From an uncultured Methylomirabilota bacterium (GTDB taxonomy: Bacteria; Methylomirabilota; Methylomirabilia; Methylomirabilales; 2-02-FULL-66-22): a stretch of 64,000 nt of DNA. Below are positions 14,192 to 57,328 of the stretch, piece by piece. Made by a program: the position numbers and the translations under genes. The notes beneath the pieces are model-generated. The model did no database searches and had not been told where the DNA came from. It saw nothing but the letters and a program-made list of their open reading frames with translations. Every line of letters starts with the position of its first letter. The first letter of the stretch is position 1. The stretch covers positions 70,914 to 134,913 of the forward strand of contig CAVOIV010000029.1 of assembly GCA_963695995.1 (NCBI GenBank). Direction: 5' to 3'.

Positions 14192-14270
14192 GAACAAGAA
14201 ACGACGTGTTGAAGCGCGTTGTGGGCGTCCGTCGTGGCTGAATGCTGATCGCTGACTGCTACCGCTGACC
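14144..14270. repeat. inverted pair of heptamer arrays (CAGCGTT-type, then GCTGANN-type)
   Basis: The left arm is GTGAGCGTTCAGCC (14144-57) and CAGTCAGCGTTCAG (14175-88). The right arm is GCTGAAT GCTGATC GCTGACT GCTACC GCTGACC (14237-70). The arms are partly complementary (CAGTCAGCG / CGCTGACTG). Confidence 0.7.
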
Positions 14271-14321
14271 GGTTGGGGACGCAACTGTGGAGCAACGACT
14301 CTCAACGAAGGAGGACCGACC

Positions 14322-24486: not shown

Positions 24487-25155
24487 ATGGCGCGGTACGT
24501 GTTGATCCGGCACGGGGAATCCGTGTGGAACGGGGAGCGGCGGATCCAGGGGAACCAGGATCCGCCGCTGTCGCCACGGGGGCGGCAACAAGCGGCACGG
24601 CTGGCGGCTCGGGTGGCCCACCGTTTGCGCACGGCGGCGGCCATCTACACGAGCCCCCTGCGCCGGGCGGCGGAGACCGCTGAGGCCCTCGGGGCCGCGA
24701 CGGGTCTGCCGGTCCTGCCGGAGCCGGGCCTCCAAGAGATGCGGCTCGGGCGGTGGGAGGGGATGCGGGTGCCCGAGATTCAGGCCGCCTTCCCCGGCAG
24801 TTACGAGCGGTGGCTGGCCGATCCGCTGACGCACCCGGCGCCTGACGGCGAGCGACTGGAAGATTTCGTACGCCGCGTGGTGGACGCCTGGACGCGACTC
24901 TGCGCCGCCCGCCCCGAGCAGGACCTGGTCCTGGTGTCCCACGGGGGGCCCATCAAGGCCATCGTCTGCCACGTCCTGGGGGTGCCGCCGCGCCGGCTCT
25001 TCCGGATCAAGCAGGACAACACGGCGGTCAGCGTGGTAGAGGCCGACACCACCACCGCGCGGGTCGTCCTGCTGAACGACACCTGCCATCTCGCCGAGGC
25101 GGGCGCCGACCTGATGCCGCGGGACGTCCTTACGGATCCCGGCGAGGCCGTCTAG
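24487..25155 (+). CDS. histidine phosphatase family protein (phosphoglycerate mutase / CobC-like)
   Basis: Intact 222 aa from ATG 24487. LIRHGESVWN (RHG motif), SPLRRA and VSHGG are present. Confidence 0.85.
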   Translation: MARYVLIRHGESVWNGERRIQGNQDPPLSPRGRQQAARLAARVAHRLRTAAAIYTSPLRRAAETAEALGAATGLPVLPEPGLQEMRLGRWEGMRVPEIQAAFPGSYERWLADPLTHPAPDGERLEDFVRRVVDAWTRLCAARPEQDLVLVSHGGPIKAIVCHVLGVPPRRLFRIKQDNTAVSVVEADTTTARVVLLNDTCHLAEAGADLMPRDVLTDPGEAV

Positions 25156-25157
25156 CA

Positions 25158-25306
25158 GGCTGCTGAAAAAGGCCCATCTGCCGCGTTGGCGTGCTCGGGC
25201 GCTCGCTGCGGCGTACCTGGAGTACGCCTCACTCGGCCCTGCGCCCGCCGCCTGGCATCTGGACCTTTTTGAGCAGCCTGGGGAAAAGGGGTTTTTCCGC
25301 ATCCTG
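25158..25306 (+). mobile_element. MITE-like palindromic repeat element, copy 1
   Basis: The termini are GGCTGCTGAAAAAGGCCC (25158-75) and GGACCTTTTTGAGCAGCC (25261-78). The interior is roughly self-complementary. The tail GGGGAAAAGGGGTTTTTCCGCATCCTG repeats the terminal motif. It starts 3 nt after a stop codon and is near-identical in reverse orientation to copy 3. Confidence 0.65.
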
Positions 25307-25341
25307 CTCATCCGCCCTTGTGCGTAGAGGAGTCCCGTCGC

Positions 25342-27229: not shown

Positions 27230-27237
27230 AGCGAGCG

Positions 27238-27260
27238 CTCAGCTTTCAGCGTTCAGCGAT
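27238..27260. repeat. short heptamer array (CAGCTTT CAGCGTT CAGCGAT) between mrdA and rodA
   Basis: A tandem 7-nt period lies directly upstream of the rodA start codon. Confidence 0.55.
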
Positions 27261-27335
27261 CCGCAAAGAATTTCCGATAGCGACCGCGGTGTTCCCCCCG
27301 TCGCTGTCGCTATCCCTGTCGACCCTCCAGGCTTC

Positions 27336-32842: not shown

Positions 32843-32958
32843 ATGACCAATGACCAATTTCCAATGACCAATTGCGGAAGAGGCGCCCTACGCCCCGAAA
32901 CCGTCTATGCCTCATGCCGTATCCGCTCTTGGTCATTGTCCATGGGGAGTTGGTCATT
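32843..32958. repeat. inverted pair of TGACCAA / TTGGTCA heptamer arrays between convergent genes
   Basis: ATGACCAATGACCAATTTCCAATGACCAATTG (32843-74) and TTGGTCATTGTCCATGGGGAGTTGGTCATT (32929-58) can pair through the TGACCAA/TTGGTCA units. Confidence 0.7.
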
Positions 32959-33686: not shown

Positions 33687-34980
33687 ATGAGTGGTCCCAC
33701 CGACGGCATCCCGGAGTACCCCCGCCTGCGTCCGGTGGAGGGGTTTCCGGCCACCATCCGCGGGCAGGACGTGTTCTGCCTGCGCGACCCCATGCATTAC
33801 AGCGACATGGTGGTGTCCGTGCCCCCCCAGACGGCCGCCATCCTGGAGTTGTTCGACGGACGGCACTCCCTTCAGGACATCCAGGAGGCGATCAGCCGGC
33901 GGTTCGGGATGCTCCTCCGCCGAGAGCAACTCCTGGAGGTGGTGCGGTCGCTGGACGAGTGCCTCCTGCTGGAGAGCCCGCACTTCGCCGGCCACCGGGA
34001 CGCGCTGGAACGGGACTTCCGCCAGGCGCCGTGCCGCCCGGCGCGGCTGGCCGGGATGAGCTACCCGGCCGAGCCGGACGCCCTTCGGCGAGCGCTGGAC
34101 GGCTACTTCGGCGCGGCCGAAGGCCCCGGAGACACGCCCCCCAGCTCGGCGGCGGCCCGGCTGAGCGGCCTCGGTCGTCCCCCACATCGATTTCCCCCGC
34201 GGCGGGCCCTGCTACGCCTGGGGCTACCGGGAGCTGGCGGGGTCCCCTCCGGTGGACCGCTGCGTCATCCTGGGCACGGTGCACGTCCCCATCGCCCAGC
34301 CCTTCGCGCTCACCCGCAAAGATTTCGAGACGCCCCTGGGACCGGCGGAGGCGGACCAGGAGTTCCTGGACGCGCTGCTGGCGCGGGTCGGCCCCGGGTA
34401 CCTCGAGGACGAGTTCGCCCACCGCGGGGAGCATTCCATCGAGTTCCAGGCCGTGTTCCTCCGGCACGTGATCCCCGCCGGGCGGCCGGTGCGGATCGTG
34501 CCGGTGCTCTGCGGGTCGTTCCATCAGCAGGTGGAGGCGCGACGCGCGCCGGCGCCGGGGGACGGGACGGAGGCGTTTCTCGGGGCCCTGCGGGACACCA
34601 TGGCGGCCGTGGGCGGACGCACCCTGGTCCTCGCGAGCGCCGACCTCGCCCACGTCGGACCCCAGTTCGGCGATCCGCGGCCGCTGACGCCTGGGCAGCT
34701 CCGCGAGCTCGAGACGGCGGATCGCCGGATGCTGTCGTCCGCGGAGGCCGGCGACGCCGGGGGCTTCTTCCAGGCGGTGGCCGCGGACGGGGACCGCCGC
34801 CACATCTGCGGCCTGCCCCCCATCTATGCGGCGCTCCGGATTCTGGGCGGCCAGCCCGGCCGGCTCCTCCGGTACGGCCAGTGGCCGGATCCGAACGGCA
34901 CGGTCACGTTTGCCGCGCTCGCCTGGTACGCGCCGACGGCGGGCAGCGGTCAGCCGTCGGCTGTCGGCGATCAGCCATGA
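33687..34980 (+). CDS. MEMO-family protein (AmmeMemoRadiSam system protein B homologue) with N-terminal PqqD-like extension, one frameshift
   Basis: The core motifs PHIDFPRGG, EHSIEFQAVFL, DLAHVGPQFGD and ICGLPPI are in the 34252..34980 frame. The N-terminal ~160 aa are in the 33687 frame, with the junction at about 34175. Residues ~25-105 look PqqD/RRE-like. Confidence 0.75.
34944..34976. repeat. heptamer array (CAGCGGT CAGCCGT CGGCTGT CGGCGAT CAGCC) forming the last codons of the MEMO-like gene
   Basis: It has a 7-nt period and is the reverse-complement type of the GCTGACC array at 35631. Confidence 0.6.
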
Positions 34981-35399
34981 CGACGGAGAATCCACCGCCT
35001 CGCGCCTCACCCGGGTACACTGTGGATGCCGCGCACGACTGCCTGCCGCAGCTTGTCGATGCGCTGGGGCGCTGGGGGGAGCTGTTTCTCCGCATGGCGG
35101 ATGAGGACCGCGTGCCCGCGGCGGAGCAGGCGCTGGGCGGTCTGGTGGACTGGATGGGGAACGGCCTCCTGGACGGCTGGCTACACCTGCCCATCGCACG
35201 CTTCGAGGCGATCAGCGATCTGGCGGAGGATCTGCTCCAGGCGTGTCAGGCGTACCTGACGCGATTGCGGCAGGCGACGCCCTCCTGCTCTGCCGCGGAC
35301 CGGACGTCGCACAGGGCGGCCATTCGCACGATCATGGCCCGCACCCAGGCACTCGCCGTTCCGGACCCTCAACCCCCAACCCCTGACCCCAAAGGGTGA
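34977..35399 (+). CDS. hypothetical 140-aa protein, translationally coupled to the MEMO-like gene
   Basis: ATG 34977 overlaps the upstream stop (ATGA). It looks helical and has a Pro-rich tail. No family is recognised. Confidence 0.5.
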   Translation: MTTENPPPRASPGYTVDAAHDCLPQLVDALGRWGELFLRMADEDRVPAAEQALGGLVDWMGNGLLDGWLHLPIARFEAISDLAEDLLQACQAYLTRLRQATPSCSAADRTSHRAAIRTIMARTQALAVPDPQPPTPDPKG

Positions 35400-35402
35400 C
35401 CC

Positions 35403-35642
35403 ATGACCCTTCGCCGGTGGATCGAGCGACGTTTCTGGGGCCGCGGCCGCACGGTGCAGTACGTGTTCATCCATCCGACCTGCGGCCAGGCGGACGTCGA
35501 GGCGGGGTACCTACCCGAGTGGGGCCGGCCGAAGTTCCTCTGCCGCCGCTGCGGGGTCGCCTTCGAGGAGGCGACGGTCCGCCTGCAATGGCAAGGCGAT
35601 CCGGCGCCCGGTGCCGGGCTGGCCGCCGCCGCTGACCGCTGA
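35403..35642 (+). CDS. hypothetical 79-aa zinc-ribbon-like protein
   Basis: It starts 3 nt after the previous stop. HPTCG..(24 aa)..CRRCG gives a four-ligand arrangement. Its 3' end runs into heptamer repeats. Confidence 0.45.
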   Translation: MTLRRWIERRFWGRGRTVQYVFIHPTCGQADVEAGYLPEWGRPKFLCRRCGVAFEEATVRLQWQGDPAPGAGLAAAADR

Positions 35643-35668
35643 TGGCTGACCGCTGACCGCCGATTGCC
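35631..35668. repeat. heptamer array GCTGACC GCTGATG GCTGACC GCTGACC GCCGATT
   Basis: A perfect 7-nt period spanning the stop codon of the 79-aa ORF and the gap before the amidohydrolase RBS. Confidence 0.7.
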
Positions 35669-43420: not shown

Positions 43421-43534
43421 TCCGTCGACGGTGCGACGGTATGGACGCCAAACACCAGACGGTTGGTGTGGATTGGCTTGACGGATCAGAGCCATCCCAG
43501 GGAAACCGGAGAGCCAAAGGACGCAGCAGAGGAC

Positions 43535-44191
43535 ATGGGTCGGACGACCGTCGTGCTGGCGGATGACCACCACATCCTGCGACAGGGCCTCCGGGCCTTG
43601 CTGGAGGCCGAGGCCGAGTTCGCCGTCATCGGCGAGGAGGCCGATGGTTTGAAAGTGGTCGCGTTGGTCGACCGGTTGAGGCCGGACGTGCTGATGCTGG
43701 ACGTGATGATGCCCGGCTTGAACGGGCTGGAGATCACACGCCAGATCGTCCAGCGGGGCTTCAAGACCCGGATCGTCATTCTTTCTATGCACGCCAACGA
43801 GACCTACGTGCGAGAAGCCCTGCGCAATGGCGCTGCGGGTTATGTCCTCAAGGATGCCAACCCCACCGAGATGGTCCAAGCCGTCCGCGAAGTGAGTGCC
43901 GGCCGCCGATATTTGAGTGCGTCCCTGTCCGAACGCGCCATCGAGGCCTACGCCCACCAAGCCCAGGACGCCCCCGCGAATCTGTACGAAACGCTCACCA
44001 CCCGGGAGCGGGAGATCCTCCAGTTGGCCGCCGAGAGCTCCAGCATCGCCGAGATCGCCGCCCGGCTGGGCATCAGCCCCCGGACGGTGGAGACCCACCG
44101 GGAAAACCTGATGCGGAAACTCGGACTCCAGAGCCAGACCGACCTGATCCGATACGCTCTCCGACGAGGGATCCTGCCGCTGGAGGATTGA
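43535..44191 (+). CDS. NarL/FixJ-family response regulator (receiver + LuxR-type HTH)
   Basis: Intact 218 aa from ATG 43535. VLADDHHIL.., DVLMLDVMMPGLNG and the C-terminal LTTREREILQLAAESSSIAEIAARLGISPRTVETHR are present. Confidence 0.9.
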   Translation: MGRTTVVLADDHHILRQGLRALLEAEAEFAVIGEEADGLKVVALVDRLRPDVLMLDVMMPGLNGLEITRQIVQRGFKTRIVILSMHANETYVREALRNGAAGYVLKDANPTEMVQAVREVSAGRRYLSASLSERAIEAYAHQAQDAPANLYETLTTREREILQLAAESSSIAEIAARLGISPRTVETHRENLMRKLGLQSQTDLIRYALRRGILPLED

Positions 44192-44420
44192 AGTTACGGC
44201 CACTTGCCGCGCATTGGCAGGTCCGCCTCGCCTGGTTTCTCGGCCCATACCCCCACAAACCGCCCGAGATTTTGCGCATTTTTCCCGCCGCAATCTCCGG
44301 AAACTTCCCTCGAAAATTCCGGGAATCCACGGATAGGCAGAACCAGGTTGGTAGCCCATATTACGGGTAGAGAGGGGAAATGGAGCAGTGAGGCTGGGTG
44401 GCCGTTGGAGGAAGACTGAA

Positions 44421-44825
44421 GTGAGGCGACTTAGCGTGCTCTTGGTGGACGACAACCCGACCTTCCTGCGCATTCTCGCCCGCTTTCTCGAGGACCAGGG
44501 CGAAGACGATCTGCGGGTGGTGGGGTCGGTCGTCGGCGGTCGGGATGCGTTGGCCGAGGCGGAACGGCTGAAGCCGGATGTCCTGCTGCTGGATCTGGAG
44601 ATGCCGGATGTCCCCGGCCTGGACCTTCTCCCGCGGCTCCGTGAGACCTTGCCCGATGCGATTCTCGTCGCGTTGACCCTCATGGACCCGGACAGTTTTC
44701 GGCCATCCGTGCTGGCGGCCGGCGCGGACGCGTTCGTCTCAAAAGCGAGCCTTGAGCATGACCTGGTGCCGGTCATCCGGCGCCTCGCCCCGCTCGAGGC
44801 TCGGCGCGGCCATTGTCTTTGCTGA
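44421..44825 (+). CDS. stand-alone receiver-domain protein
   Basis: GTG 44421 follows GGAGGA; the track ORF starts at 44388. LLVDDNPTFL.., DVLLLDLEMPDVPG and FVSK are present. There is no output domain. Confidence 0.75.
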   Translation: MRRLSVLLVDDNPTFLRILARFLEDQGEDDLRVVGSVVGGRDALAEAERLKPDVLLLDLEMPDVPGLDLLPRLRETLPDAILVALTLMDPDSFRPSVLAAGADAFVSKASLEHDLVPVIRRLAPLEARRGHCLC

Positions 44826-44890
44826 GTTGCGGACCAGGGAGACCTGACCGGCGAATTACAATCGCACGGCGAAGCTCCAAGGAGGCCCCC

Positions 44891-45433
44891 ATGACGTTCG
44901 TTTCCGTGCCGCCCCTCCGGCTCTTGCTCATCGATGACTCCTCCCCGTTCCGCCAGACCCTGGCCCGATTGCTCCGGGTGGCTGGCCATACGGTCTTTGA
45001 GGCCGAGGCAGGCTCTGCCGGCCTCGCGATCCTCCGCACAAATCCGGTGGATCTCGTGCTCACGGATCGGGATATGCCGGGTTTGAGCGGGTGGGACGTC
45101 GCGCGGCTCGTCAAGACGACGGACCCCCGATTGCCCGTGGTGCTCGTGACTGGCGGAGCCGGAAGCGGTCCGCTTGACCAGAGGACCTCGGCTCCAGTCG
45201 ATGCCATCCTCTGGAAGCCATTCCCGTTCGCCGAGCTGCTGACAATCATCGGCCGCTTGACGACGGGCGCCACCGCCGGTCCCGTCGGTGGCGCGACCGG
45301 CCTGCCGACGGGCGTGACAGAGACAGAACTCAACCAGGAAGGGCATCAGCCTGGCGCACCGGTTGGCGCGGGCGTCGCAACCGGCCACTCGTATCGGCGG
45401 ATGCGGAGCAGCATGGCCACAAGCGGGAGGTGA
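44891..45433 (+). CDS. stand-alone receiver-domain protein with Gly/Thr/Pro-rich tail
   Basis: ATG 44891 follows AAGGAGG. LLLIDDSSPF.., DLVLTDRDMPGLSG and LWKPF are present, followed by about 55 aa of low-complexity tail. Confidence 0.75.
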   Translation: MTFVSVPPLRLLLIDDSSPFRQTLARLLRVAGHTVFEAEAGSAGLAILRTNPVDLVLTDRDMPGLSGWDVARLVKTTDPRLPVVLVTGGAGSGPLDQRTSAPVDAILWKPFPFAELLTIIGRLTTGATAGPVGGATGLPTGVTETELNQEGHQPGAPVGAGVATGHSYRRMRSSMATSGR

Positions 45434-45436
45434 GTC

Positions 45437-46076
45437 ATGGCGACGATCTTGATCGTGGACGATGAAGAGTCGATGGCCTGGGTTCTGGCGCACTTGCTGC
45501 GCACGGACGGGCACACGCCCATCATCGCCTCGAACGGCGAGGCGGCGATCCGCGAGGCGCGCGCGCACCCCGACCTGATCCTGCTCGACCTGGGGTTGCC
45601 GGACATCCCCGGCGAGGAAGTCCTCACGCGTCTCAAGCGACAGCCGGAGACCGCCCGAATCCCGGTCGTGGTCGTTTCCGGCCAACCGGACGCCGCGGCC
45701 ATCGTCGCCGAGAGCGGGGCCAACGCGCGTGGCGGCCATCCTGAGGAAGCCGGTGTCGTTCCCGGAGCTCCGCGCGGTGGTGGACGCCGTGCTGGACGCG
45801 CCCGCGGGGTGGGAGGAGGGGACGGGACCCGCAATCCAGGATCAGCGCGTCCGGCTTATCTATCGCCTCGTTACCGAGGGCTCCAATGCCCTGGTCCGCA
45901 AGGTCTGCCTGCGTCTCGACGCGGACCGGACGCAGCCGCGGAGGTCCGCAGCGCCGGAAATCCCCAGCTGGACGGACCTGGCGCGCCTCGCCAAGCGGGA
46001 GGGCCTCCTGAGCGATGCGGAGGCGACCCTCCTGGCTCCGGAACCCGCGGGCCTGGTCGCGGCCCACTACGCCTGA
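45437..46076 (+). CDS. receiver-domain protein with unassigned ~85-aa C-terminal domain, one frameshift
   Basis: ILIVDDEESM.. and DLILLDLGLPDIPG are in the first frame. The continuation ..AILRKPVSFPEL.. plus the C-terminal domain is in the 45729..46076 frame, with the junction at about 45725. Confidence 0.7.
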
Positions 46077-46116
46077 AGAAGCCCTGGCGCCGCGTGGCGC
46101 ACGGGCAGCGCACCGC

Positions 46117-46419
46117 ATGAGCGTTACCGAGGAGACCGGTATGGCGACGATCGTGACGTACACCGACCACGAGCCCGTGAGCAACCAGTATCCGGAACGG
46201 ATCGTCTCTCCCTGTCGGCCTGGCGCCTGTTGCTTCACCGATATGGAGGAGGTCGGGACAGCCCAGCAAGACGGGCGCTGGATATTCCAATACCGGCGCT
46301 GTCGCAAGTGCGGGTTCTCGGTCCGTCTGATTCTTCGGGAGATTCCCGACACCGCTCTGGCGGAGGAATTGCGTCGAATCCTGGCCAACTCTTTCGTTCG
46401 GAACGTCCCGGATATGTAG
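46117..46419 (+). CDS. hypothetical 100-aa Cys-rich (zinc-ribbon-like) protein
   Basis: ATG 46117. CRPGACC ..(25 aa).. CRKCG. No family is recognised. It is embedded between response-regulator genes. Confidence 0.5.
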   Translation: MSVTEETGMATIVTYTDHEPVSNQYPERIVSPCRPGACCFTDMEEVGTAQQDGRWIFQYRRCRKCGFSVRLILREIPDTALAEELRRILANSFVRNVPDM

Positions 46420-46516
46420 ACGGGGGAGACCCAAGCCGCCTGCCGGTGCGAAATCCGCCATGGTGCAGCCAGACCGGCAGGCGCTGTAGACGTTGTCGAG
46501 CACGTCGGGAGATCTT

Positions 46517-47242
46517 ATGAGTGATTCCGCCCGCATTCGCGTCATGCTGGTAGACGACCATGCCCTCGTGCGAAAGGGACTCGCCAATCTCCTCCGCGCC
46601 GAGCCGGACTTCGAGGTGGTGGGCGAGGCCGGTGACGGCGTGGAGGCCATCGCGAAGGCGCCCGCCTTTCGGCCGGACATCATCCTCATGGATGTGCGGA
46701 TGCCCCGGATGAACGGACTCGACGCGACCCCGCGCATTCTCGAGACGCTCCCGGCCGTGAAGATCGTGATGCTCACCGTCACGGAGGACGAGGACGCCGT
46801 GTTTGACGCGGTGAAGAGGGGGGCGCAGGGGTACCTGCTGAAATCGATCGAGCCCCAGACGCTCTTTGACTTGCTGCGGGGCGTCCTGCGCGGTGAGGCC
46901 GCCCTGTCCAGCGGCCTGGCAACCAAGATCCTGCTGGAGTTTGCTCGCCAATCGCGGCGTCCAGCGGAGACGGTTTCCCCGCTGGCCCAACTGAGCAGCC
47001 GCGAGCAGGACGTCCTGGCGTTGGTCGCGGATGGGAGGAGTAACAAGGAGATCGCGACGGTCCTCGACCTCGCCGACAACACGGTCAAGAACTACGTCAA
47101 GAACATTCTCGAGAAGCTTCACCTGGAGAATCGCGTGCAGGCCGCGGTCTTCGCCTTCGAAGAAGACCGGGCGAGCACCTCGAACGGCAAGCCCCCCAGA
47201 ACCGCGGCGCCTCCTACCCCCTCCTCCGCGGGCCGCGGTTGA
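46517..47242 (+). CDS. NarL/FixJ-family response regulator (receiver + LuxR-type HTH)
   Basis: Intact 241 aa from ATG 46517. [13 protein letters not shown].., DIILMDVRMPRMNG and LSSREQDVLALVADGRSNKEIATVLDLADNTVKNYV are present. Confidence 0.9.
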   Translation: MSDSARIRVMLVDDHALVRKGLANLLRAEPDFEVVGEAGDGVEAIAKAPAFRPDIILMDVRMPRMNGLDATPRILETLPAVKIVMLTVTEDEDAVFDAVKRGAQGYLLKSIEPQTLFDLLRGVLRGEAALSSGLATKILLEFARQSRRPAETVSPLAQLSSREQDVLALVADGRSNKEIATVLDLADNTVKNYVKNILEKLHLENRVQAAVFAFEEDRASTSNGKPPRTAAPPTPSSAGRG

Positions 47243-47778: not shown

Positions 47779-47855
<77 letters not shown>

Positions 47856-47881: not shown

Positions 47882-47910
47882 ATAAAACCATGCGGGCGCA
47901 CAGGCGTCAA
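47882..47910 (-). promoter_or_regulatory. candidate sigma70 promoter of tRNA-Ala
   Basis: On the minus strand: TTGACG (47905-10), 17-nt spacer, TTTTAT (47882-87), about 26 nt upstream of the tRNA 5' end. Confidence 0.45.
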
Positions 47911-47924
47911 GCGAAAAATCCCCC

Positions 47925-48255
47925 CGCCTGCTCATCACCCCGCCCGTCCTGTGCACCTGTCCTCTGTCTGTTCTGCCTGCTGCAACCTGCCAGCTTTTCA
48001 TCACCCGTCTTTCCCCAATTGACCAGGTGCCCCTCCTCCCTGCGCCTTCCGGTCGGGGTTCGGCTGACCGCTGAACGCTGACTGCTGACCGCTGTTCTCT
48101 GCTGTGTGCCCCCTGCCAACTGTCATGCTGCCAGCTGCCAGCTATTCATCATCCGTCTTCCCCAATTGACCAATTGCCTAATCGACCAATCGCCCCCCGC
48201 TTCCCTTCGCTTGCCGCTCGCTGCCAGCTGCCAGCTGCCGCCTGCCAGCTAGCCT
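47925..48255. repeat. large heptad-periodic, pyrimidine-rich repeat field
   Basis: It contains GCTGACC GCTGAAC GCTGACT GCTGACC GCTGTTC (48063-97), GCTGCCAGCTGCCAGCT (48127-43), CCCCAATTGACCAATTGCCTAATCGACCAATCGCC (48160-94) and CTGCCAG-type runs (48221-50). There are two copies of a ~42-nt composite unit at 47987-48027 and 48135-48176. Confidence 0.8.
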
Positions 48256-48728
48256 CTCCCCGGTGTCTCCATTCTCGTTGCCCAGCGTCTCCTTTCGGCG
48301 ACAGCAGCGGTGCCATCGGCGCCAGGCTCGTCGAGGCCCGCGGTCGATCCTCGCGCTCCGTAAACGGGTCGTGGCGCGAGGTTTCGGAGACGAGGCTCGG
48401 CGGAATCGTGGTCGGGTAGCAGACGGTACGGCAATTGCCTCGTCTTTCGGAAGGCGCGCCACGCACAGGAGGAGCTTACAGGTGTTGGCCACGGCGGACC
48501 TTGTGGTCCTGGTCCTACGGGTGTTGCCCGGGAAGATCCGCGAGTGGCTGAACGCGGAGCGGAACCTCCCTGGGAAAAGAAAGGACGAGGCGGGCACGTC
48601 TGACTCGGCGCGCGAGCATTGGGGATCTGGATAAGCACGGTGGCCGGCGGGAAACGCTTGCTCTTTCGCGGCCTGCGAAACGACGGTGCGTGACGAAATG
48701 CTGGAGAGGAGGTGAGGTGTCTGGGGGG

Positions 48729-48860
48729 ACCAAGGAGGCTGATTCCTCGGAAAGGCGAAACGGCACGGATGAAGCGATCTCAAAGAGTAGATGGAAGGAG
48801 GCTTCACATGAAGAAGCTGGCCGTGTTGATGATTATACCCGCCTTGGTCATGTTAATGGT
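48729..48860 (+). repeat. duplicated 5' leader + signal-peptide module, copy 1
   Basis: ACCAAGGAGGCTGATTCCTCGGAAAGGCGA..GGAAGGAGGCTTCACATGAAGAAGCTG.. aligns at roughly 75% identity with 49532-49660. Confidence 0.65.
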
Positions 48861-49385
48861 TCCGGCGCTGGCATCGGCGAATTGGTACTACTGGTGGGGC
48901 ATCCAGGGGAACTGGGAGATGAGCGCTTCGGGCAGCTGTCTCCATTCATCGTTGGCGTACACAAAAGAGAATGGTAAGTGGACCGCTCCCAGTGATTCTA
49001 GCGTCTATGCCGGTGTTACCGTGGCCAACGGTACGTGGATTTTCAAGATACTAACGGTGGGGGAACGTATTCACAGAGGATCTACGCCACGATCTTGCCG
49101 GGCGGCGCCGCTTCCATGAATGGCGTCGCCGTACCTCTCGAAGTGCGTGTAATCCCTCCACTATCGGTCGCGGAGCCACCGCCCGTGGAGTTCACCTACG
49201 AAATCACGTCTTCCGGGGATATCACAGTGACTGAGACTGTTAGCGGTATCAAGCATTACGGAAATATTTCAAAGGACATGAACAGCATGACACTCCTCAC
49301 TGCCAATAATGTTCAGCTTTTTGGGAGCAACTTCTTGTATACGATCTGTAATACCGCGCGCACCCTGATCAAGGTGGGCCATTAG
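48808..49385 (+). CDS. hypothetical secreted protein, one frameshift
   Basis: ATG 48808 follows GGAAGGAGG. The signal peptide is MKKLAVLMIIPALVMLMVPALASA. The mature part continues in the 49035..49385 frame, with the junction at about 49040. The region is noticeably lower in GC. No family is recognised. Confidence 0.55.
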
Positions 49386-49421
49386 AGGCAACGCGGACGA
49401 GCGGCGATTGTTAGGGCCTGT

Positions 49422-49451
49422 CACGAGCGCCAAGGAAACTTGGCGCTCGTG
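49422..49451 (+). terminator. perfect 13-bp hairpin downstream of the secreted-protein gene
   Basis: CACGAGCGCCAAG-GAAA-CTTGGCGCTCGTG, with no T run. Confidence 0.55.
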
Positions 49452-49531
49452 CATCTCCGCCGAGTGCGTGGAGACGGCGTCTGACGAACTGTTGGAAAAG
49501 ACGTGACGTCCGGTGGGCTAATCGCATCGGA

Positions 49532-49660
49532 ACCGAGGAGGCGCATTCTTCGGAAAGGCGACACCACACGTAGTAAAGCGGTCTCATAGAGCAGGAAGGA
49601 GGCTTCAGATGAAAAAGTTGTCTGTGTTCCTGATGATACCCCTCCTAGCCATGTTTATGG
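49532..49660 (+). repeat. duplicated 5' leader + signal-peptide module, copy 2
   Basis: ACCGAGGAGGCGCATTCTTCGGAAAGGCGA..GGAAGGAGGCTTCAGATGAAAAAGTTG.. See copy 1. Confidence 0.65.
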
Positions 49661-50579
49661 CGGCGGCCCTGGCCGGCCTAACTGTCTCGGCAGCATCAGC
49701 CGATGAGAAGCGATTCTCGGACTGGTCCGCGCCAGTTAGTCTTGGCGATATCGTCAACTCCGCGTACTACGATGCCTGCCCGACCATTTCAAAAAGTGGA
49801 CTGAGCCTCTACTTTCGATCGAACCGGCCTAACCCTAACGGCGCCCAGGGCAACTTCGACATCTGGGTGTCCCAGCGCGACAGCCTTGAGGACCCATGGG
49901 AAGAACCGATCAATCTTGGTCCGACGATCAATGGGCCATCCAACGAGTTCTGCCAGCACCTTCTCGGCCGACGGACACTGGCTGGTCTTCGTAAGTGACC
50001 GCCCGGGAGGATGCGGTGGGCAGGACCTGTGGATTTCGCACCGGAAAGACAAGCGCGACGATTTCGGTTGGGAGCCACCAAAGAACCTCGGATGCACCGT
50101 CAATAGCTCCGCGCCTGAGAGCGGCCCGTTTCTCTTTGAAGACGAGGCCAGCGGCAAGACTCTGCTCTATTTCAACAGTGCCCGTTCAGGCACAAGCGTC
50201 GATATCTATGCCAGCGCGGCGGTCTTTGGGACGAAGGATACCTTCGGGCCGCCCAGTCCCGTCGCGGAACTCAATAGCAGCGCGAACGATTTTCAGCCGG
50301 TCCTCCGTAGAGACGGCTTGGAGGTCATCTTCGCGTCGAACCGCACCGGGACAATCGGGTTGGCAGATCTGTGGGTTTCGACGCGCAACAGCACCCCGGG
50401 ATCCATGGTCCGTACCTGTGAACCTGGGACCGGTGGTGAACTCAGCCGGTGAGGAATTTCACCCGACGCTGTCCTCTGACGGAACTACCCTGATCTTCGC
50501 GCATTCTGACTTAGTGATACCGCTTGGCAACGCGGACCTGTTCATGTGCACCCGAAACAAGCTTCACGGTCACAAGTGA
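49609..50579 (+). CDS. secreted TolB-like beta-propeller (PD40/WD40-like repeat) protein, two frameshifts
   Basis: The signal peptide is MKKLSVFLMIPLLAMFMAAALA. PD40-like units recur (P.IS.SGLSLYFRSNR..G..DIWVS; FSADGHWLVFVSDR..GGQDLWIS; VLRRDGLEVIFASNR.G..DLWVS; LSSDGTTLIFA). The junctions are at about 49955 and 50395. The region is lower in GC. Confidence 0.65.
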
Positions 50580-50911
50580 TCGGTTATTCCGCTGGCGGCA
50601 TCTCAGAACGGTGTCGCCAGAGTGCATTGCAAGAAACAACTCTTCGGTCCTCTGGACCTCCTCGCCGAGGTCAGTGCCAGAGGGGGGATTGCCTAGGACA
50701 TTCATCCTTGACAATGCGGCCAGGTGAGGACTAACGTCCCGCTCGGAGACCCCCTCCTCACACACGTCCGGCCCTGCGCGAGGCGAGAGCGGTGATGAAT
50801 GGGCCTCGGACAGCCTCTAGCGCCCCCGTCGGCCATCTCCATGGCCAGCGGGGGCGCTTTGTCTTTGCGGAGTGTACGAAAGGGGCGTGTTGCGAAAGAT
50901 TCTCGAAACGA

Positions 50912-51954
50912 ATGGATGTCGGCGGGAAGCTCCGCCAAGCGGTGCTAGGCATTCTCCTCGTCCTCAGTCTCCTCGCGGTTCCGGTACTCTCCCTTGGACA
51001 ACAGCCGGCGAAGGTCTATCGGATCGGGTGGCTCGCGACGGGCACTTATGGAACAGACCCGCGGAGTTGCCCGCCCAAGGGCAATGCATTCTGGCAGACA
51101 TGGATCGAGGCATTGCGGGAGCGCGGGTATATCCAGGGCCAGAACCTCGTCGTCGAGTGCCGGTATACGGAGGGGCGGGACGAGCGAGCCCAAGCCTTCG
51201 CGGCTGAGCTCGTGAGTCTCAAGGTCGACCTCATCGTCGCCAGCGGTACCAACCAGGTCCGTGCGGCCAAGCAAGCCACCAGCGCGATCCCCATCGTCAT
51301 GCATAGTGTCATGGAACCCGTCAGGAGAGGGCTTGTCGCCGGCCTCGCACGCCCAGGCGGCAACGTCACGGGGCTGACGGAGAGTGCCGGGATGGAAATC
51401 TATGGGAAGTATCTCCAGCTCCTCAAGGAGGCCGTCCCCACTGTCTCCCGCGTCGCTGCCCTCAGGTATTCGGGCGCCTCGTATGATCTTGACTTTGGGA
51501 GGGAGACCTACAGAGAGATGGAGGCAGAGGCGCGAGCGGCTCGGCGTGCTGCTGCAGTCCTACGGCGTCCAGCAGTCCCGAGGAGCTGGAGGGCGCCTTT
51601 GCCGCGATGACCAAGGCGAGGGCGGAGGCACTCCTCGTGGTGCCGCACCCCTCTTTCGCGACTCATGCTCAACGGATCGTCGATCTCGCCGCACGGAGCC
51701 GGCTGCCGGCCATGTACCCCGACAAAACGCACGTCGAGATCGGGGGGCTCATGGCTTATGCGGTGGACCTCCTTGACACCCCGCGGCGCCTGGCTGAGTA
51801 CGCGGACCGAATCCTCAAAGGGGCCAAGCCGGGCGATCTTCCCGTGGAGCAGCCGACCAAGTTCGAGTTGATTCTCAATCTCAAGACCGCCAAGGCCCTC
51901 GGACTGACGATCCCTCCAACGCTGCTCATCCAAGCGGAGGAGGTGATCCGGTAG
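50912..51954 (+). CDS. ABC_sub_bind-type (PF04392-like) periplasmic binding protein, two frameshifts
   Basis: ATG 50912 with a signal peptide. KVYRIGWLA.., VDLIVASGTNQVRAAKQAT.AIPIV, GGNVTG and the C-terminal GAKPGDLPVEQPTKFELILNLKTAKALGLTIPPTLL are present. The junctions are at about 51530 and 51570. Confidence 0.75.
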
Positions 51955-51956
51955 TA

Positions 51957-52089
51957 GGCTGCTGAAAAAGGCCCATCGATTGACAAATTCGAAGTTCGAA
52001 TTTCGAAATCCGAATTTGAGCGACGGATGAAGATCAAGCACCAGGACCTTTTTGAGCAGCCTGGACAAGGGAAGCTTTTCAACAGCCTG
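51957..52089 (+). mobile_element. MITE-like palindromic repeat element, copy 2 (variant interior)
   Basis: It has the same termini as copy 1 (GGCTGCTGAAAAAGGCCCATC at 51957; GGACCTTTTTGAGCAGCC at 52044-61) and the same tail motif. The interior is replaced by AT-rich TTCGAA-palindrome repeats. It starts 3 nt after a stop codon. Confidence 0.6.
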
Positions 52090-52115
52090 ACGCAGCGGAT
52101 TGTCGAGGAGTCGCC

Positions 52116-53562
52116 ATGAATGCCGCTGGCCCGTTGGTCTTGGTCGTTGACGATGATCCGACCGCGCGGCGGATGCTGGATGTCCGCATGCGTGCGCTGG
52201 GATGCCAGGTGGCCATGGCGGAGACGGGTCGGGAGGCCCTCGCCGCCATGGAACGCGACCTGCCGGCCGTCATGCTGCTCGATCTCCAGATGCCGCAGAT
52301 GGACGGCATGGAAGTCCTCCGGGCCCTGAACCGCGAGGGCGTGGACGTTCCCACGATCGTGATCACCGCGCACGGCACCATCGACACCGCCGTCGAGGCC
52401 ATGAAGGAGGGGGCGGTTGATTTCATCCTGAAGCCCTTCGATCCGCAGTATCTGGAGATTGCGGTGCGCCGCGCCCTGGAGCGGCGGCAGCTCCTCGATT
52501 CCAATCGGCTCTTCCGCGACGCGCTGGCGGCCCGGTCCGCGAACATCCTCGGAGAGGGCCCGCTGATCCGGGCGGCCATCCAGACGGCGCAAAAGGCGTC
52601 CGGCACGAATTCCACCGTGCTGCTCCTTGGCGAGAGCGGCACCGGCAAGGAGGTCTTCGCCCACACGATCCACCAGTGGAGTCCGAGGCGGGACAAGCCG
52701 TTTGTCGTGGTCAACTGCGTCGCGCTGTCCGAGCACCTGCTGGAGAGCGAGCTGTTCGGCCACGAGAAGGGCGCGTTCACCGGAGCCCACCAGGCGAAGA
52801 AGGGGAAGTTCGAGGCGGCGAACGGGGGGACGGTCTTCCTCGACGAGATCGGGGACATGCCGCTGAGCCTGCAGACCAAGCTGCTGCGGGTCCTGCAAGA
52901 CCACGAATTCGAGCGCGTCGGCGGCACCCGGCCCCTCTCGTCGGATATCCGCGTCCTGGCCGCCACCAATCGCGATCTCGACGAGACGGTGCGGGCGGGG
53001 CGGTTTCGGGCCGATCTCTTCTATCGGTTGAACGTGATCCGGATCGTGCTCCCACCGCTCCGCGACCGCCGGGAGGACATCCCGGCGCTCGCCCAGCACT
53101 TCATGGCGCGGTACGCCGCGGAGACGAAGCGACCCGTGCGCCGGATCGCGGCAGAGGCCATGGATCTTCTCACGCGGTATCACTGGCCCGGCAACGTCCG
53201 GGAGCTTGCGAATACGATGGAACGCGCCGTGGTCCTGTGCGCGGGCGACGACGATCACCGCCGCCGATCTCGCCTTGCCGGGGACCTCAGCCGCCCTCCC
53301 GGTCCCACGACTCCGTTCCCGTAGAAGACGGCCGACGGATTCCACGATCAAATCAATAGCCTACCGGCGGCAGGTCCTGGTGGGCGCCCTGCGACGAGCG
53401 AACGGGAATCACACCCAGGCCGCCAAGCTTTTGGGGCTGAATCGCACCTACCTCTTGCGGCTCCTGCAAAAACTCCATATCCCCGGGGAGCTGGAAAACG
53501 GGACCCTGACGCCTTCCCGGGATGCAGAGGCTCCCGCGCCTGCGCCATCCGACGCGCGCTAA
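52116..53562 (+). CDS. sigma54-dependent NtrC-family response regulator, one frameshift
   Basis: The receiver ([12 protein letters not shown].., [13 protein letters not shown]) is followed by an AAA+ domain ([28 protein letters not shown], and [11 protein letters not shown] in the arginine-finger region). The C-terminal Fis-type HTH ([25 protein letters not shown]) is in the 53206..53562 frame, with the junction at about 53245. Confidence 0.9.
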
Positions 53563-53710
53563 CAGGATGCTGAAAAACTCGATTTCCCCAGGCTGCTCAA
53601 AAAGGTCCAGATGCAAGGCGGCACGCCGACGCTCGAGCGAGGCGTACTGGAAGTACGTCGCAGCGAGTGTCGAGACGGGCCAACGCTGCGATGGGCCTTT
53701 TTCAGCAGTC
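53563..53710 (-). mobile_element. MITE-like palindromic repeat element, copy 3 (inverted relative to copy 1)
   Basis: The reverse complement of 53591-53710 aligns end to end with 25158-25278 (GACTGCTGAAAAAGGCCCATCGCAGCGTTGGC...GGACCTTTTTGAGCAGCC). The tail motif is at 53563-90. It starts 1 nt after the ntrC-like stop. Confidence 0.65.
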
Positions 53711-53724
53711 GGCCAGGTGATTCC

Positions 53725-55645
53725 GTGAGCGTGCAGCATCGCCTGTTCCGAAAATACGTCGTCATCTTCTTCGGCCTCGTCAGCAGCGTGCTGATCGCCA
53801 GCGGCGCGATGGAGATCTATTTCTCGTATCAGGCCAATAAGGCGACGCTGGTCCGCGTGCAGAGCGAAAAGGCGGAAACCGCGGCGACGCGCATCGAGGA
53901 ATTCATTCACGAAATCGTCACCGCGATCGCGTGGACGGCGCATTCCGCCTACCTGCCGGCCGGCGAGGCCCCGACGGCAGCGATACCTGGACTACTTGTG
54001 GCTCCTCCGCCAGGTGCCCTCCATCACCGAGGCGATGCATCTCGATGCGTCCGGGCGGGAAACGCTGCGGGTCTCGCGCCTGGCCCGCAATGTGGTCGGC
54101 AGCGGGACGGATTATTCGCAGGATCCCCGCTTCCTGGCGGCCCAGGCCGGCGCGATCTATTTCGGTCCGGTCTATTTTCGCAGGGAGTCCGAACCCTACA
54201 TGACCATCGCGCTGCCGCTGAAAGGCCCCGACGCGGGGATCGCGGTCGCCGAGGTGAACCTGAAGCTCTTCTGGGGCGTCATCTCGCAGGTCCAGGTCGG
54301 CGGGGCCGGGTACGCCTACGTCGTGGATTCAGGCGGCATCCTCATCGCGCATCCGGACATCGGCCTCGTCCTGCAGAAGACCGCGCTGGGCGCGCTCCCG
54401 CAGGTGCGCGCGGCCCTCGCCGCCTCGCCGCGCCCCGCGGGCCGAGGAGGCTCCGGGGCGGCGATCGGTGCGGACCTGGGCGGCCGCGAGGTGCTGACCG
54501 CACACGCCGCCGTCTCGCCGGTGGGCTGGCATGTGTTCGTGGAGCAGCCGGTCCGCGAGGCGTTTTCTCCCCTGTACGCGGCCATCCTGCGGACCGGCGT
54601 CTTGCTCCTGGTGGGCCTCGCGCTCTCCACGGTGGCCAGCCTGTTTCTTGCCCGGAGAATGCTCCGCCCGATTCAGGCGCTGCAGCAGGGGGCGGCGCGC
54701 ATCGGGGCGGGATCGCTGGACGAGCGCATCACCTTGCGGACGGGCGACGAGCTGGAAGCCCTGGCAGAGCAATTCAACCAGACGGCCGCCCAGTTGCAGG
54801 AGTCGTATGCGAGCCTGGAGCGCAAGGTCCAGGAACGCACGGCGGACCTCACCGAGGCGCTCCGCGCGTTGCAGGAGAAGACCCAACAGCTCGAAATTGC
54901 CAGTCGTCACAAGTCCATCTTCCTCGCCAACATGTCCCACGAACTCCGCACCCCGATGCACGCCATCATCGGCTGCTCCGAAATCCTCCTGGACCCCTCC
55001 CTGCCCGTCACGGAGCAGGAGCGGCCGCAGTTCCTCCGGGACATTCTCGCCAGCGGCCGGCATCTCCTCGCGCTGATCAACGAGGTCCTCGACCTGTCCC
55101 GGATCGAGGCGGGCCGCCTGGACCTCCGGATCGAGCCGACCGCGGTCCGGGAGGTGCTCGACGCCGTGCACGGGACGATGCGGCCGTTGGCCGCGAAGAA
55201 GCATATCCGGTTGGACCTGGAGTGCGCGGAGGACCTGGGGCTGGTTCCCATGGATGGCGTGCGGGTGCGGCAGGCCCTGCTCAATCTGGTCGGCAATGCC
55301 CTCAAGTTCACCCCCGAGGGGGGGCGCGTGTGGGTGCGGGGCTTCCTGTCCCACCCCGACGGCGGACTCCGGATCGAAGTCGAAGACACGGGCCCGGGCA
55401 TCCCGGCGGAGGAGCACGAGCGCATCTTCGTCGAGTTCCAGCAGGCCCCGGTCGCGCACGCGGCCGGTCGCCCCGAAGGCGCGGGCTTGGGGCTGACCCT
55501 GGCGCGCCGCTTCGTCGAGATGCACGGCGGCCGCCTCTGGGTCGAGAGCGAGGTGGGGCGGGGCAGCACGTTCATCGTCACGCTGCCGGCGGGCACGGCG
55601 GCGAGCACAAGCGATCCGCCGACGCCGTCGCGGGCGTTCGTGTGA
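53725..55645 (+). CDS. membrane sensor histidine kinase (extracytoplasmic Cache-like domain, HAMP, HisKA, HATPase_c), one frameshift
   Basis: GTG 53725, then a TM segment. A frameshift at about 53970 moves into the 53996..55645 frame. HAMP (LRPIQALQQGAARIGAGSLDERI), the H-box FLANMSHELRTPM, and N/G boxes (NLVGNALKFT, DTGPGIP, GAGLGLTLARR) are present. Confidence 0.85.
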
Positions 55646-56806: not shown

Positions 56807-56945
56807 GGGCAACCGATGGCTGGCCTATGCGCATTTCCCGCTCGCCTGCTTTCTGCCAGTCGCCCGCTGCCAACTGCCAGCTATTCATCATCCGTCTTTC
56901 CCAATTGCCCAGTTGCCCAATTGCCCATTCTCCCCGATCCCCTGA
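56796..56945 (+). pseudogene. possible remnant of the cognate HEPN-toxin gene, replaced by repeat DNA
   Basis: ATG 56796 overlaps the MNT 3' end by 11 nt, as in MNT-HEPN pairs. Only MPGEGNRWLAYAH looks protein-like. From about 56835 the frame is made of heptamer/octamer repeats. Confidence 0.3.
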
Positions 56946-57000
56946 CGCGGTTCAGCTGCCCGCTGCCTACTGCCTCCTGCCCGCTGCCTGCTGTCTTTTA
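56830..57000. repeat. second pyrimidine-rich short-period repeat field, directly upstream of the tRNA-Leu promoter
   Basis: It holds the third copy of the composite unit, CTGCCAGCTATTCATCATCCGTCTTTCCCAATTGCCCA (56874-56911). It also contains an octamer run (GCCCAATT/GCCCAGTT, 56900-29) and a CTGCCNN heptamer run x5 (56956-93). Confidence 0.8.
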
Positions 57001-57011
57001 CTCCTTTCACC

Positions 57012-57040
57012 TTGACAGTCGGAGAGGGCTGGCTTAAAAA
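57012..57040 (+). promoter_or_regulatory. candidate sigma70 promoter of tRNA-Leu
   Basis: TTGACA (57012-17), 17-nt spacer, TAAAAA (57035-40), 15 nt upstream of the tRNA 5' end. Confidence 0.5.
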
Positions 57041-57055
57041 GAGAACGCACGAAAC

Positions 57056-57139
57056 GCCGGGGTGGTGAAACTGGTAGACGCACGGGACTCAAAATCCCGC
57101 GGGCTTCGGCTCATGAGGGTTCGATTCCCTCCCCCGGCA
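57056..57139 (+). tRNA. tRNA-Leu (anticodon CAA), CCA not encoded
   Basis: An 84-nt class II tRNA: acceptor GCCGGGG/CCCCGGC, anticodon loop CTCAAAA, long variable arm, T-loop TTCGATT, discriminator A. It closely parallels the E. coli tRNA-Leu(CAA) layout. Confidence 0.9.
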
Positions 57140-57328
57140 CCCCAATGGGACAGTGGTTTCGTCCAATCCAAGCAGTCCTTCCGGCCTCGCTTCAGCGTCA
57201 ACGTCTCATCCATGGCCACCACAATGCGTCCCACGGTCGCCTGGATCGCTTCTCGCACCCGTCCGGGTTTCCTCTGCTGCGGAATCCGTCGATCAGCCTC
57301 TGCAGGCGGTGGTGGAGGGCCACAGGGG

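Follow-up and report, generated by a model that had tools for sequence, protein, structure and literature searches.

A C-rich field of heptamer repeats in an NC10/Rokubacteria-like bacterium and its place among the intergenic heptamer repeats of the lineage

What kind of element is a 330-nt stretch that lies between a tRNA gene and a conserved leader, follows a 7-nt rhythm and is rich in C and T on one strand? This question is raised by positions 47925-48255 (hereafter the field) of a 64,000-nucleotide stretch of contig CAVOIV010000029.1, which is referred to here as the window. A sequence-only reading had described the field as a heptad-periodic array without a credible gene, located upstream of tRNA-Ala and resembling the short tandemly repeated repetitive (STRR) sequences of heterocystous cyanobacteria. 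Our analysis showed that the field is a genuine non-coding tract of 7-base tandem repeats, and that it is a strand-asymmetric (C-rich) member of the lineage-wide intergenic heptamer repeats of an NC10/Rokubacteria-like bacterium. As to its nature, we favour, with a probability of roughly 0.55, a slippage-driven simple-sequence tract similar to STRR sequences and to long simple-sequence repeats (LSSRs), which occupies promoter-upstream spacers and acts at most as a length-variable modulator.

A periodic and composite non-coding tract

The periodicity of the field is well above chance. Identity at a lag of seven bases amounted to 0.488, compared with 0.296±0.025 in 1000 dinucleotide-preserving shuffles (z 7.8), none of which reached the observed value. 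Lags 14 and 21 were likewise elevated, and lags 6 and 8 were not. Tandem Repeats Finder (TRF) called three arrays of period 7 with 4.3-4.6 copies each, at 48063-94 (GCTGACC), 48113-43 (CTGCCAG) and 48220-50 (GCTGCCA). The runs that had been read by eye, namely GCTGACC GCTGAAC GCTGACT GCTGACC GCTGTTC at 48063-97 and CTGCCAG at 48127-43 and 48221-50, were all recovered, as was the general 7-nt period. A further stretch at 48160-94, described as TGACCAA/CGACCAA with CCCCAATTGACCAATTGCCTAATCGACCAATCG, has the sequence and position assigned to it but not the period, since TRF resolves 48162-48194 as period 8/16 (CCAATTGA) and not as heptameric. Within the field TGACCAA and CCCCAAT occur as isolated words only, never in tandem. 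The plus strand contains 42% C, 20.5% G and 68% pyrimidines, in agreement with its description as C/T-rich, and no other 150-nt windows of the 64 kb are as C>G-skewed as the two halves of the field and a related copy at 56.9 kb (skew +0.27, about 4 standard deviations).

The open reading frames (ORFs) that mechanically overlap the field are 59-209 codons long. Because indels of 1, 7 and 21 nt among the orthologues break these frames, none of them is coding and the earlier impression of a tract without a credible ORF holds. Repeats are easily mis-assembled and the exact genome was present in no public run, so that an artefact of assembly, or low complexity arisen by chance, had to be considered. 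However, the field was recovered from four independent metagenome assemblies (loci L020, L026, L045 and L046) and from Logan contigs of two further runs (X1 and X23). Its presence in independent assemblies with the same internal order refutes the artefact, and with a periodicity of z 7.8 the probability left to this explanation is negligible.

An alignment of six copies from the window and two relatives revealed that the repeats are organised in a module of about 150 nt. CTGCC-type heptamers lead into a core, GCTATTCATCATCCGTCTT, which is followed by a run of CCAATTGN octamers and then by a C-rich spacer with a second heptamer run (GCTGCCN). The field contains two such modules in tandem, a diverged one at 47925-48062 and a well-preserved one at 48098-48255, with a GCTGAYC array between them. 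A third module is found at 56840-57000, upstream of tRNA-Leu and in the same orientation. A 21-nt version of the core, CAGCTWTTCATCAYCCGTCTT, has three exact copies in the window (47991, 48139 and 56878), all on the plus strand, where shuffled sequences are expected to have none. The composite unit proposed in the sequence-only reading was thus found in all three of its places, including the distant one at 56.9 kb.

All parts of the field are given here in plus-strand orientation. Module 1 (47925-48062), the left half of the field, consists of weak CTG-phased heptamers, the core GCTTTTCATCACCCGTCTT at 47993-48011, CCCCAATTGACCA and a C-rich linker; it matches the module profile with E 8e-25, and a comparable diverged left module is present in L026. 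The GCTGAYC array that follows (48063-48126; TRF period 7, 4.6 copies) continues as NCTGNNN and keeps nine units in phase before a slip of 1 nt; its family recurs at 14237, 27234 (minus strand), 34937 (minus strand) and 35631. GCTGCCA/CTGCCAG heptamers at 48127-48143 then run into the non-repetitive 19-nt core of module 2, GCTATTCATCATCCGTCTT (48141-48159), which is exact in the third copy at 56880-56898 and in L020 and departs in L026 at the one ambiguous position (A to T). The period-8 array CCAATTGA CCAATTGC CTAATCGA CCAATCGC with its CAATTG palindromes (48160-48194; TRF period 8 and 16) is 92-95% identical in L020 and L026. The remainder (48195-48255) is the C-rich spacer and the GCTGCCA array at 48220-48250 (TRF period 7, 4.4 copies). 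In the third module, also on the plus strand, CTGCCA heptamers precede the core, CCCAATTG octamers occupy 56900-56927 and GCTGCCY heptamers 56955-56993 (TRF period 7, 5.6 copies).

The flanks of the field differ in how well they are conserved. On the left, tRNA-Ala(GGC) at 47780-47855 (ARAGORN; Rfam 69.5 bits) is encoded on the minus strand, so that the field lies at its 5' side. A putative tRNA-Ala promoter, TTGACG (47910-47905), 17 nt and TTTTAT (47887-47882), was recognised by eye on the minus strand (47882-47910) and abuts the field; a consensus promoter scanner made no call for it. The position upstream of tRNA-Ala is therefore correct for the window, but the link is not conserved in L020, L026 and L045. 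The window and L046 have tRNA-Ala to the left of the field; in L020 and L026 its place is taken by a DUF1344-like gene, absent from the window, with a hairpin. In L045 the left neighbour is an insertion sequence (IS) element; the tRNA-Ala promoter abuts other DNA there and tRNA-Ala is 2.7 kb off. The promoter sequence itself adjoins tRNA-Ala in L046 and L045 too, and the breakpoint in gene order coincides with the left edge of the field. On the right, a non-coding leader (48256-48481, plus strand) aligns with L020 and L026 and is also present in L045 and L046. Leader, a small ORF and the first of two paralogous genes follow the field in L026, L045 and L046, and L020 shares the first part of the leader only and then differs. 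The third module has tRNA-Leu(CAA) (57056-57141, plus strand; ARAGORN and Rfam) as its right neighbour, with a putative promoter, TTGACA-17 nt-TAAAAA (57012-57040, plus strand, by eye), 12 nt past the module end at 57000 and 19 nt past the last heptamer at 56993. L045 retains the tRNA-Leu module and an identical putative promoter despite a different upstream gene. Since the left neighbour is variable and the right one conserved at both loci, both fields are part of the DNA upstream of the right-hand unit.

Length variation and the heptamer repeats of the lineage

Orthologous fields were identified in two ways. Of the 31 matches to the 19-nt core in a metagenome scan, 29 were due to chance and two were true orthologues (L020 and L026). 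A protein search with the gene at 48808-49119, through its homologues P0135 and P0138, added the syntenic loci L045 and L046. The four fields differ mainly by blocks. L020, from the clade of L045, has a single module. L026, of which 3.4 kb are known, has two modules and a partial duplication of 84 nt. In L046, which is 97% identical to the window, an insertion of 430 nt separates module 1 from the GCTGACC array. L045, at 88-93% identity, has an IS110-family element in the 19-nt core, so that the halves of its field are 1.6 kb apart, and in its tRNA-Leu copy of the module most of the core is gone. Smaller differences occur in whole units. The metatranscriptome contig from X23, covering 48160-48416, has one extra GCTGCCA (+7 nt) after 48219, and the bog DNA contig from X1 (56923-57091) equals the window save for a 21-nt (3-unit) deletion at 56956 in the GCTGCCY array. 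A contig from the RNA library X34 omits 104 nt of the 56.9-kb field. Such whole-unit steps of 7 and 21 nt together with block changes are the signature of slipped-strand mispairing and unequal recombination between repeats. The earlier suggestion of a recombination hot spot gains some support from the synteny breakpoint at the left edge and from the insertions in the fields of two relatives.

Both insertions have features of their own. The IS110-family element of L045 (7526-9093) encodes Transposase_20 (E 8e-11) in a broken reading frame and ends in inverted repeats of ATATGGAA(A/G)GACCG; its position suggests that the 19-nt core may be a specific target of this element. The insertion of L046 (8826-9258) repeats at its left end the tRNA-Ala promoter motif (GTCAAGCGAAAAATCC) and contains a short ORF that looks like an antitoxin remnant.

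Heptamers are not confined to the field. Period-7 arrays of at least 3 copies numbered 18 in 178 kb of lineage DNA versus 1 in 208 kb of unrelated contigs, and they make up 18 of the 28 tandem arrays in lineage DNA, where every other period accounts for at most 5. Within the 64 kb, the families GCTGAYC, GCTGCCA, TGACCAA, TTCGAAN and CCCCAAC occupy 10 places. With respect to genes, the strong arrays of the window are all in spacers and eight of nine arrays in relatives are intergenic by independent gene calls. Syntenic loci of relatives contain CTTCGAA (x5.6) and TTCGAAG in L008, GCGGTCA, TCAGCNA and GGGGTTG/GGGGATT in L010, and ATGCCAT in L043; the GCTGAYC, TTCGAAN and CCCCAAC/GGGGTTG families recur among relatives. 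The window has a GC content of 67%, and its nearest named RodA relatives (58-60% identity) are assigned to "candidate division NC10", Methylomirabilota and "Candidatus Acidoferrum", in line with the non-cyanobacterial host inferred earlier. Close RodA relatives are otherwise metagenomic only, and near-identical DNA was found in runs from bog, wetland, soil and sediment metagenomes.

Heptamer simple-sequence repeat arrays are already known from bacteria, and the field is a further example of them. In the survey of Mrazek et al. 2007, as relayed by two later papers (PMC4679880, PMC4692102), heptanucleotides outnumber every other class of long simple-sequence repeat, repeats with long units are enriched in genomes of large size and high GC content, examples being Burkholderia, Xanthomonas and actinobacteria, and in non-pathogens, and polymerase slippage is the proposed cause. 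The surprise that the sequence-only reading expressed at finding such repeats in a high-GC context therefore fails, as far as the survey is known through these papers. The field shows the LSSR features examined: tandem units, above-chance periodicity, unit numbers that vary between strains and arrays outside coding DNA. LSSRs with their 5-11-nt units are matched, again by that account, in the predominance of period 7, a large GC-rich genome of a free-living organism, the non-coding preference and slippage-type changes. They differ in that the survey did not cover this phylum and described arrays, not composite modules common to several loci.

The STRR sequences of heterocystous cyanobacteria (Calothrix/Nostoc) share with the repeats described here tandem heptamers of several families, intergenic dispersal and variable copy number. 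STRR-like behaviour thus holds by analogy, for a non-coding, heptad-periodic and length-variable field. The heptamers named as STRR units are real Nostoc units (GGGGA(T/C)T, complement CCCCA(A/G)T, PMC4692102; GAC(C/T)AAT, bioRxiv 10.1101/2022.06.06.494920) but are not tandem in the field. TGACCAA/GACCAAT is tandem at 32843, and CCCCAAT/GGGGATT is tandem in L010 and present as single words in the field. In contrast to the cyanobacterial repeats, the host here is NC10/Methylomirabilota-like with 67% GC, the units are GCTG-based, and the field, rather than being a pure array, is a module of higher order that includes a unique core and a run of octamers. The dominant GCTGAYC/GCTGCCA family was not found in the literature consulted on cyanobacterial repeats. 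In Nostoc 7120, eight copies of GAC(C/T)AAT lie upstream of recO and their deletion changed regulation (bioRxiv 10.1101/2022.06.06.494920).

Other heptamer systems resemble the field in part. Arrays of GGGAATC in Xanthomonas and GGGGA(T/C)T in Nostoc are found chiefly in the spacers of co-directional genes, and most of them are transcribed (PMC4692102). These quadruplex heptamers (Rehm et al. 2015, PMC4692102) are comparable as heptamer repeats spread across a high-GC genome, in co-directional-gene spacers, near starts and stops and mostly transcribed, and GGGGTTG/GGGGATT arrays are present in relatives of our bacterium. The units of the field, however, are GCTG-based, and its G-rich strand has irregular G-tracts with long loops and therefore no regular four-tract quadruplex motif. 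TAACTGA direct repeats are known from three phyla, i.e. marine Beggiatoaceae, cyanobacteria and Bacteroidetes (MacGregor 2015, PMC4679880). They are intergenic and located just before start codons, as are the arrays at 27234-64 (rodA) and 35618-68 (amidohydrolase) here, and they too are a case of one heptamer recurring in unrelated phyla (PMC4679880). The unit sequence is different, at least 230 nt separate the field from the next start codon, and the tRNA-Leu module precedes the putative promoter. The 7-bp tracts of Haemophilus influenzae hmw1A/hmw2A, which mediate graded phase variation, are also heptamers of strain-variable unit number between promoter region and gene. In comparison, the tract described here is imperfect and composite, stands outside a host-adaptation context and shows length polymorphism. 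Finally, the omega heptad arrays of plasmid pSM19035 consist of contiguous 7-bp units upstream of promoters, but their unit sequence is unrelated and the context here is chromosomal.

No report of such repeats from Rokubacteria or Methylomirabilota turned up in a literature search. The heptamer simple-sequence repeats of Nostocales, Xanthomonas, Burkholderia and Beggiatoaceae are thus extended to an uncultured NC10/Rokubacteria lineage of soils and bogs, in which heptamers are the dominant class of tandem repeat and their families are common to relatives. Such tracts break metagenome assemblies, their unit counts are markers of strain-level variation, and those beside promoters are candidate tuning sites.

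Slippage, protein binding, transcript signal or mobile element

According to the reading that we favour, the gain and loss of DNA in whole units and blocks reflects slipped-strand mispairing and unequal recombination, and the tract would persist because promoter-upstream and inter-cistron spacers presumably tolerate it. That it tolerates insertions is seen in L046 (430 nt) and L045 (IS110-family element). Any effect would be that of a length-variable upstream spacer, whose gain or loss of units may shift promoter output, with three heptamers corresponding to two helical turns. On this reading the tract has no specific RNA role and codes for no protein.

Several observations weigh against this reading. 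Nine arrays yielded 44 units of the GCTG class, of which 42/44 are conserved at position 2 and 44/44 at position 4, with positions 5 and 7 free; the variation among unit positions is non-random (chi-square p 2e-9), in a heptamer register that was set by eye. A GCTG fixed every 7 bp hints at a constraint, or at a mutational bias beyond slippage, and with the register placed by eye we treat the pattern as a lead, not as proof. The orientation of the module relative to the right-hand unit is identical at both loci, and GCTG arrays are sense-oriented in 6/7 independent cases, which is not significant (p about 0.06). Furthermore, the 19-nt core and octamer run are 91-95% identical in L020/L026 versus 67-77% for the adjacent leader. 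For the core part of the field as a whole, identity to L020 and L026 is 87-90%. We had at one stage taken the field to be conserved above its flanks (89.5% vs 73-82%), a view that was weakened by the 88-93% identity seen for ordinary genes in the clade of L045 and L020 and by the unusual divergence of the region right of the field. With clade genes at this level the field is conserved like average coding DNA and not more, and its conservation is weak evidence of constraint.

The same observations would suit a protein-binding platform, in which the GCTG-NNN heptads, the CAATTG octamers and the 19-nt core are read by a predicted protein that activates, represses or insulates the right-hand unit. 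The omega repressor of plasmid pSM19035 binds heptad arrays and is a precedent for a heptad-reading protein; by analogy, a binding protein here could polymerise along contiguous heptads. The nearly invariant GCTG with its free positions 5 and 7, the fixed orientation, the end of the module about 20 nt before the putative tRNA-Leu -35 element (an arrangement kept in L045) and the 91-95% conservation of core and octamers all point in this direction. So does the word CAATTGCC, which is found only in the two fields and in the leader palindrome GGCAATTGCC. In Nostoc, deletion of the heptamers altered the effects of NtcA and LexA at the recO promoter (bioRxiv 10.1101/2022.06.06.494920). However, no candidate protein could be tied to the field, and the regulators nearby do not keep this position in relatives. 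The field also survives a 430-nt insertion, an IS in its core and the loss of one module, and the tRNA-Leu copy of L045 does without most of the core. As its conservation does not exceed that of ordinary genes and the heptamer register was set by eye, we consider a binding platform unlikely. Doubtful, and more so, is the stronger proposal of a conserved control element upstream of promoters, formed by the module of about 150 nt and recognised by a heptad-binding protein, or of a heptamer machinery shared across phyla. TGACCAA and GGGGATT in NC10-like bacteria, cyanobacteria and xanthomonads could reflect a shared generating or binding machinery rather than independent slippage. Should the GCTG-phase constraint and the cross-phylum recurrence of heptamers prove true, the question of why the unit is seven becomes testable, with slippage or a heptad-reading protein as answers.

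A role at the RNA level would require that the field acts as an unstructured leader or 3' tail, rich in C and poor in G, which loads Rho, as a Rho utilization (rut) site or insulator, or binds an RNA-binding protein. By composition the field resembles a rut site, with at least 70 nt that are C-rich, G-poor and unstructured, and the strand skew of its two halves and of the tRNA-Leu module fits as well. Within the field no Rfam match was found at the gathering threshold or at E up to 10, and folding gave no excess stability over shuffles (z +0.40 for the plus and -1.17 for the minus strand). A structured RNA was rejected on these grounds, which leaves the RNA option of the sequence-only reading without structural support; the lack of a stable fold is what an unstructured Rho-loading site would show. 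Transcripts may cover the tracts, since the X23 metatranscriptome contig includes 48160-48416 and a contig from X34 (depth 27) spans a nucleotidyltransferase gene into the 56.9-kb field, but RNA libraries may include DNA and both contigs lack strand information. In L020/L026 the field comes after a plus-strand gene and a hairpin without a T-run, which also speaks for a role in RNA. At tRNA-Leu, by contrast, the module sits upstream of the putative promoter, and the upstream gene is divergent both in L045 and at the 48-kb locus of the window, so that there is no incoming transcript for a rut or insulator field to stop. A C>G skew is lacking in the family's remaining heptamer arrays, and a YC spacing of 7 nt is not known to be typical of rut sites. 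On balance an RNA-level function appears doubtful.

It might also be argued that the module is a small mobile element, similar to a miniature inverted-repeat transposable element (MITE) or a short dispersed repeat (SDR), or the target of one, and was transposed to both loci. Its three copies at two loci 9 kb apart speak for this, as does the IS110-family element exactly in the core in L045, members of this family being known to insert site-specifically, and the lineage does have a true dispersed palindromic element. But neither terminal inverted repeats nor a target-site duplication were found for the module, and the strand bias of 68-70% pyrimidines excludes inverted termini. The profile search gave no additional copy in about 240 kb of lineage DNA, scans of genomes and JGI metagenomes with the core returned the orthologous locus only, other matches being due to chance, and the 21-nt core searched against 596 Gb of species-representative genomes had 5 matches, all chance, in unrelated taxa. 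Without inverted termini and without copies beyond the two loci in the DNA searched the module is not a MITE, and a dispersed element was rejected because its three copies stand at two loci with none further in the profile search. Orthologues are moreover about 90% alike versus 76-87% for paralogues, and we regard transposition as very improbable.

Some narrower candidates were tried as well. No convincing sigma-70 or sigma-54 promoter was seen by eye in the conserved core, and across the field the consensus scanner made no call. The complement of the core (ACGGAUGA) suggested a GGA motif of the CsrA type, an idea that was dropped as the motif is lost in module 1 (ACGGGUGA). Counts of CAGCTG/CAATTG palindromes were uninformative as to avoidance or clustering, and a replication origin or iterons were rejected because the cumulative GC skew is monotonic through the region.

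Neighbouring features and other repeats of the window

The leader right of the field contains an invariant hairpin, CCTCGCGC...GCGCGAGG (about 48352-48385), and the 10-bp palindrome GGCAATTGCC (48429-48438). No Rfam family was assigned to 48256-48481, the sole match being below threshold (E 3.7, 17 bits) at 48345-48399; the leader could be a regulatory RNA or an operator. The small ORF of 50 codons that follows AGGAGG (48482-48634, plus strand) is conserved in L026 and L046 and has no Pfam family. Of the two tandem paralogous genes, the first (48808-49119, plus strand) is without a Pfam match and the second (49609-49998) matches Pfam PD40. They belong to a region of lower GC (48700-51950; 56-60% vs 67%) which also includes an ABC_sub_bind gene split into ORFs 50792-51610 and 51607-51954 and which is 73-84% identical between relatives, compared with 88-97% for the rest of the genome. 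On the other side of tRNA-Ala, five response-regulator genes stand in a row at 43463-47242, and two of these encode LuxR/GerE DNA-binding domains. The row lies downstream of PAS histidine kinases; L046 has it as well, but L045 does not.

Further heptamer arrays are spread over the window. A GCTGACY array at 14237-14271 (plus strand), of the same family as in the field, lies in the spacer between creatininase-family and SBP_bac_5 genes. The PBP2-rodA spacer contains a GCTGAAC array at 27234-27264 (minus strand), which precedes the start of rodA by 5 nt and is identical in L044 (CGCTGAA before rodA). L010 (93.6% identity) lacks the whole spacer with its array and L006 (80%) has a decayed version, which indicates that individual arrays are dispensable. 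Ahead of the array, the spacer has an inverted repeat GCGACAGCGAC...GGTCGCTATCG at 27265-27309 (minus strand), and in L010, where the spacer is gone, PBP2 and rodA overlap at TGAATG. TGACCAA forms a true tandem array of four copies at 32843-32873 (plus strand), after the stop codon of a SurA-like gene. Inverted TTGGTCA words follow at 32929 and 32950 (within 32929-32956), before the stop codon of the convergent gene, and array and words could together form a bidirectional terminator-like hairpin.

A group of arrays is found around 35 kb. A GCTGAYC/GCCGAC array at 34932-34980 (minus strand) is inverted relative to the one at 35627-35668, a CAACCCC array at 35365 marks the end of ORF 34977-35399, and a GCTGACC array at 35618-35668 (plus strand) closely precedes the amidohydrolase gene and its ribosome-binding site. 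The inverted GCTGACC-type arrays (34937-34969 and 35630-35662) are 85% complementary and bracket 660 nt with ORFs 34977-35399 and 35403-35642. At the place syntenic to the CAACCCC array, L010 has a GGGGTTG array.

The dispersed palindromic element of the lineage is intergenic and about 150-170 nt long, with copies in the window at 25142-25329 (plus strand), 53540-53727 (minus strand) and 51948-52114 (plus strand) and in relatives at 7682-7856 of L044, 2797-2976 of L010 and 17861-18041 of L042. Its termini are GCTGCTGAAAAAGGCCCATC ... GGACCTTTTTGAGCAGCCTGG..GTTTTTCAGCATCCTG and it has no Rfam match; it is similar to a MITE or to repetitive extragenic palindromes (REP), or may be an RNA. In the copy at 51948-52114 the middle is swapped for a TTCGAAN array (51985-52014, plus strand), upstream of a sigma-54 activator gene, and this heptamer family is also present in L008.

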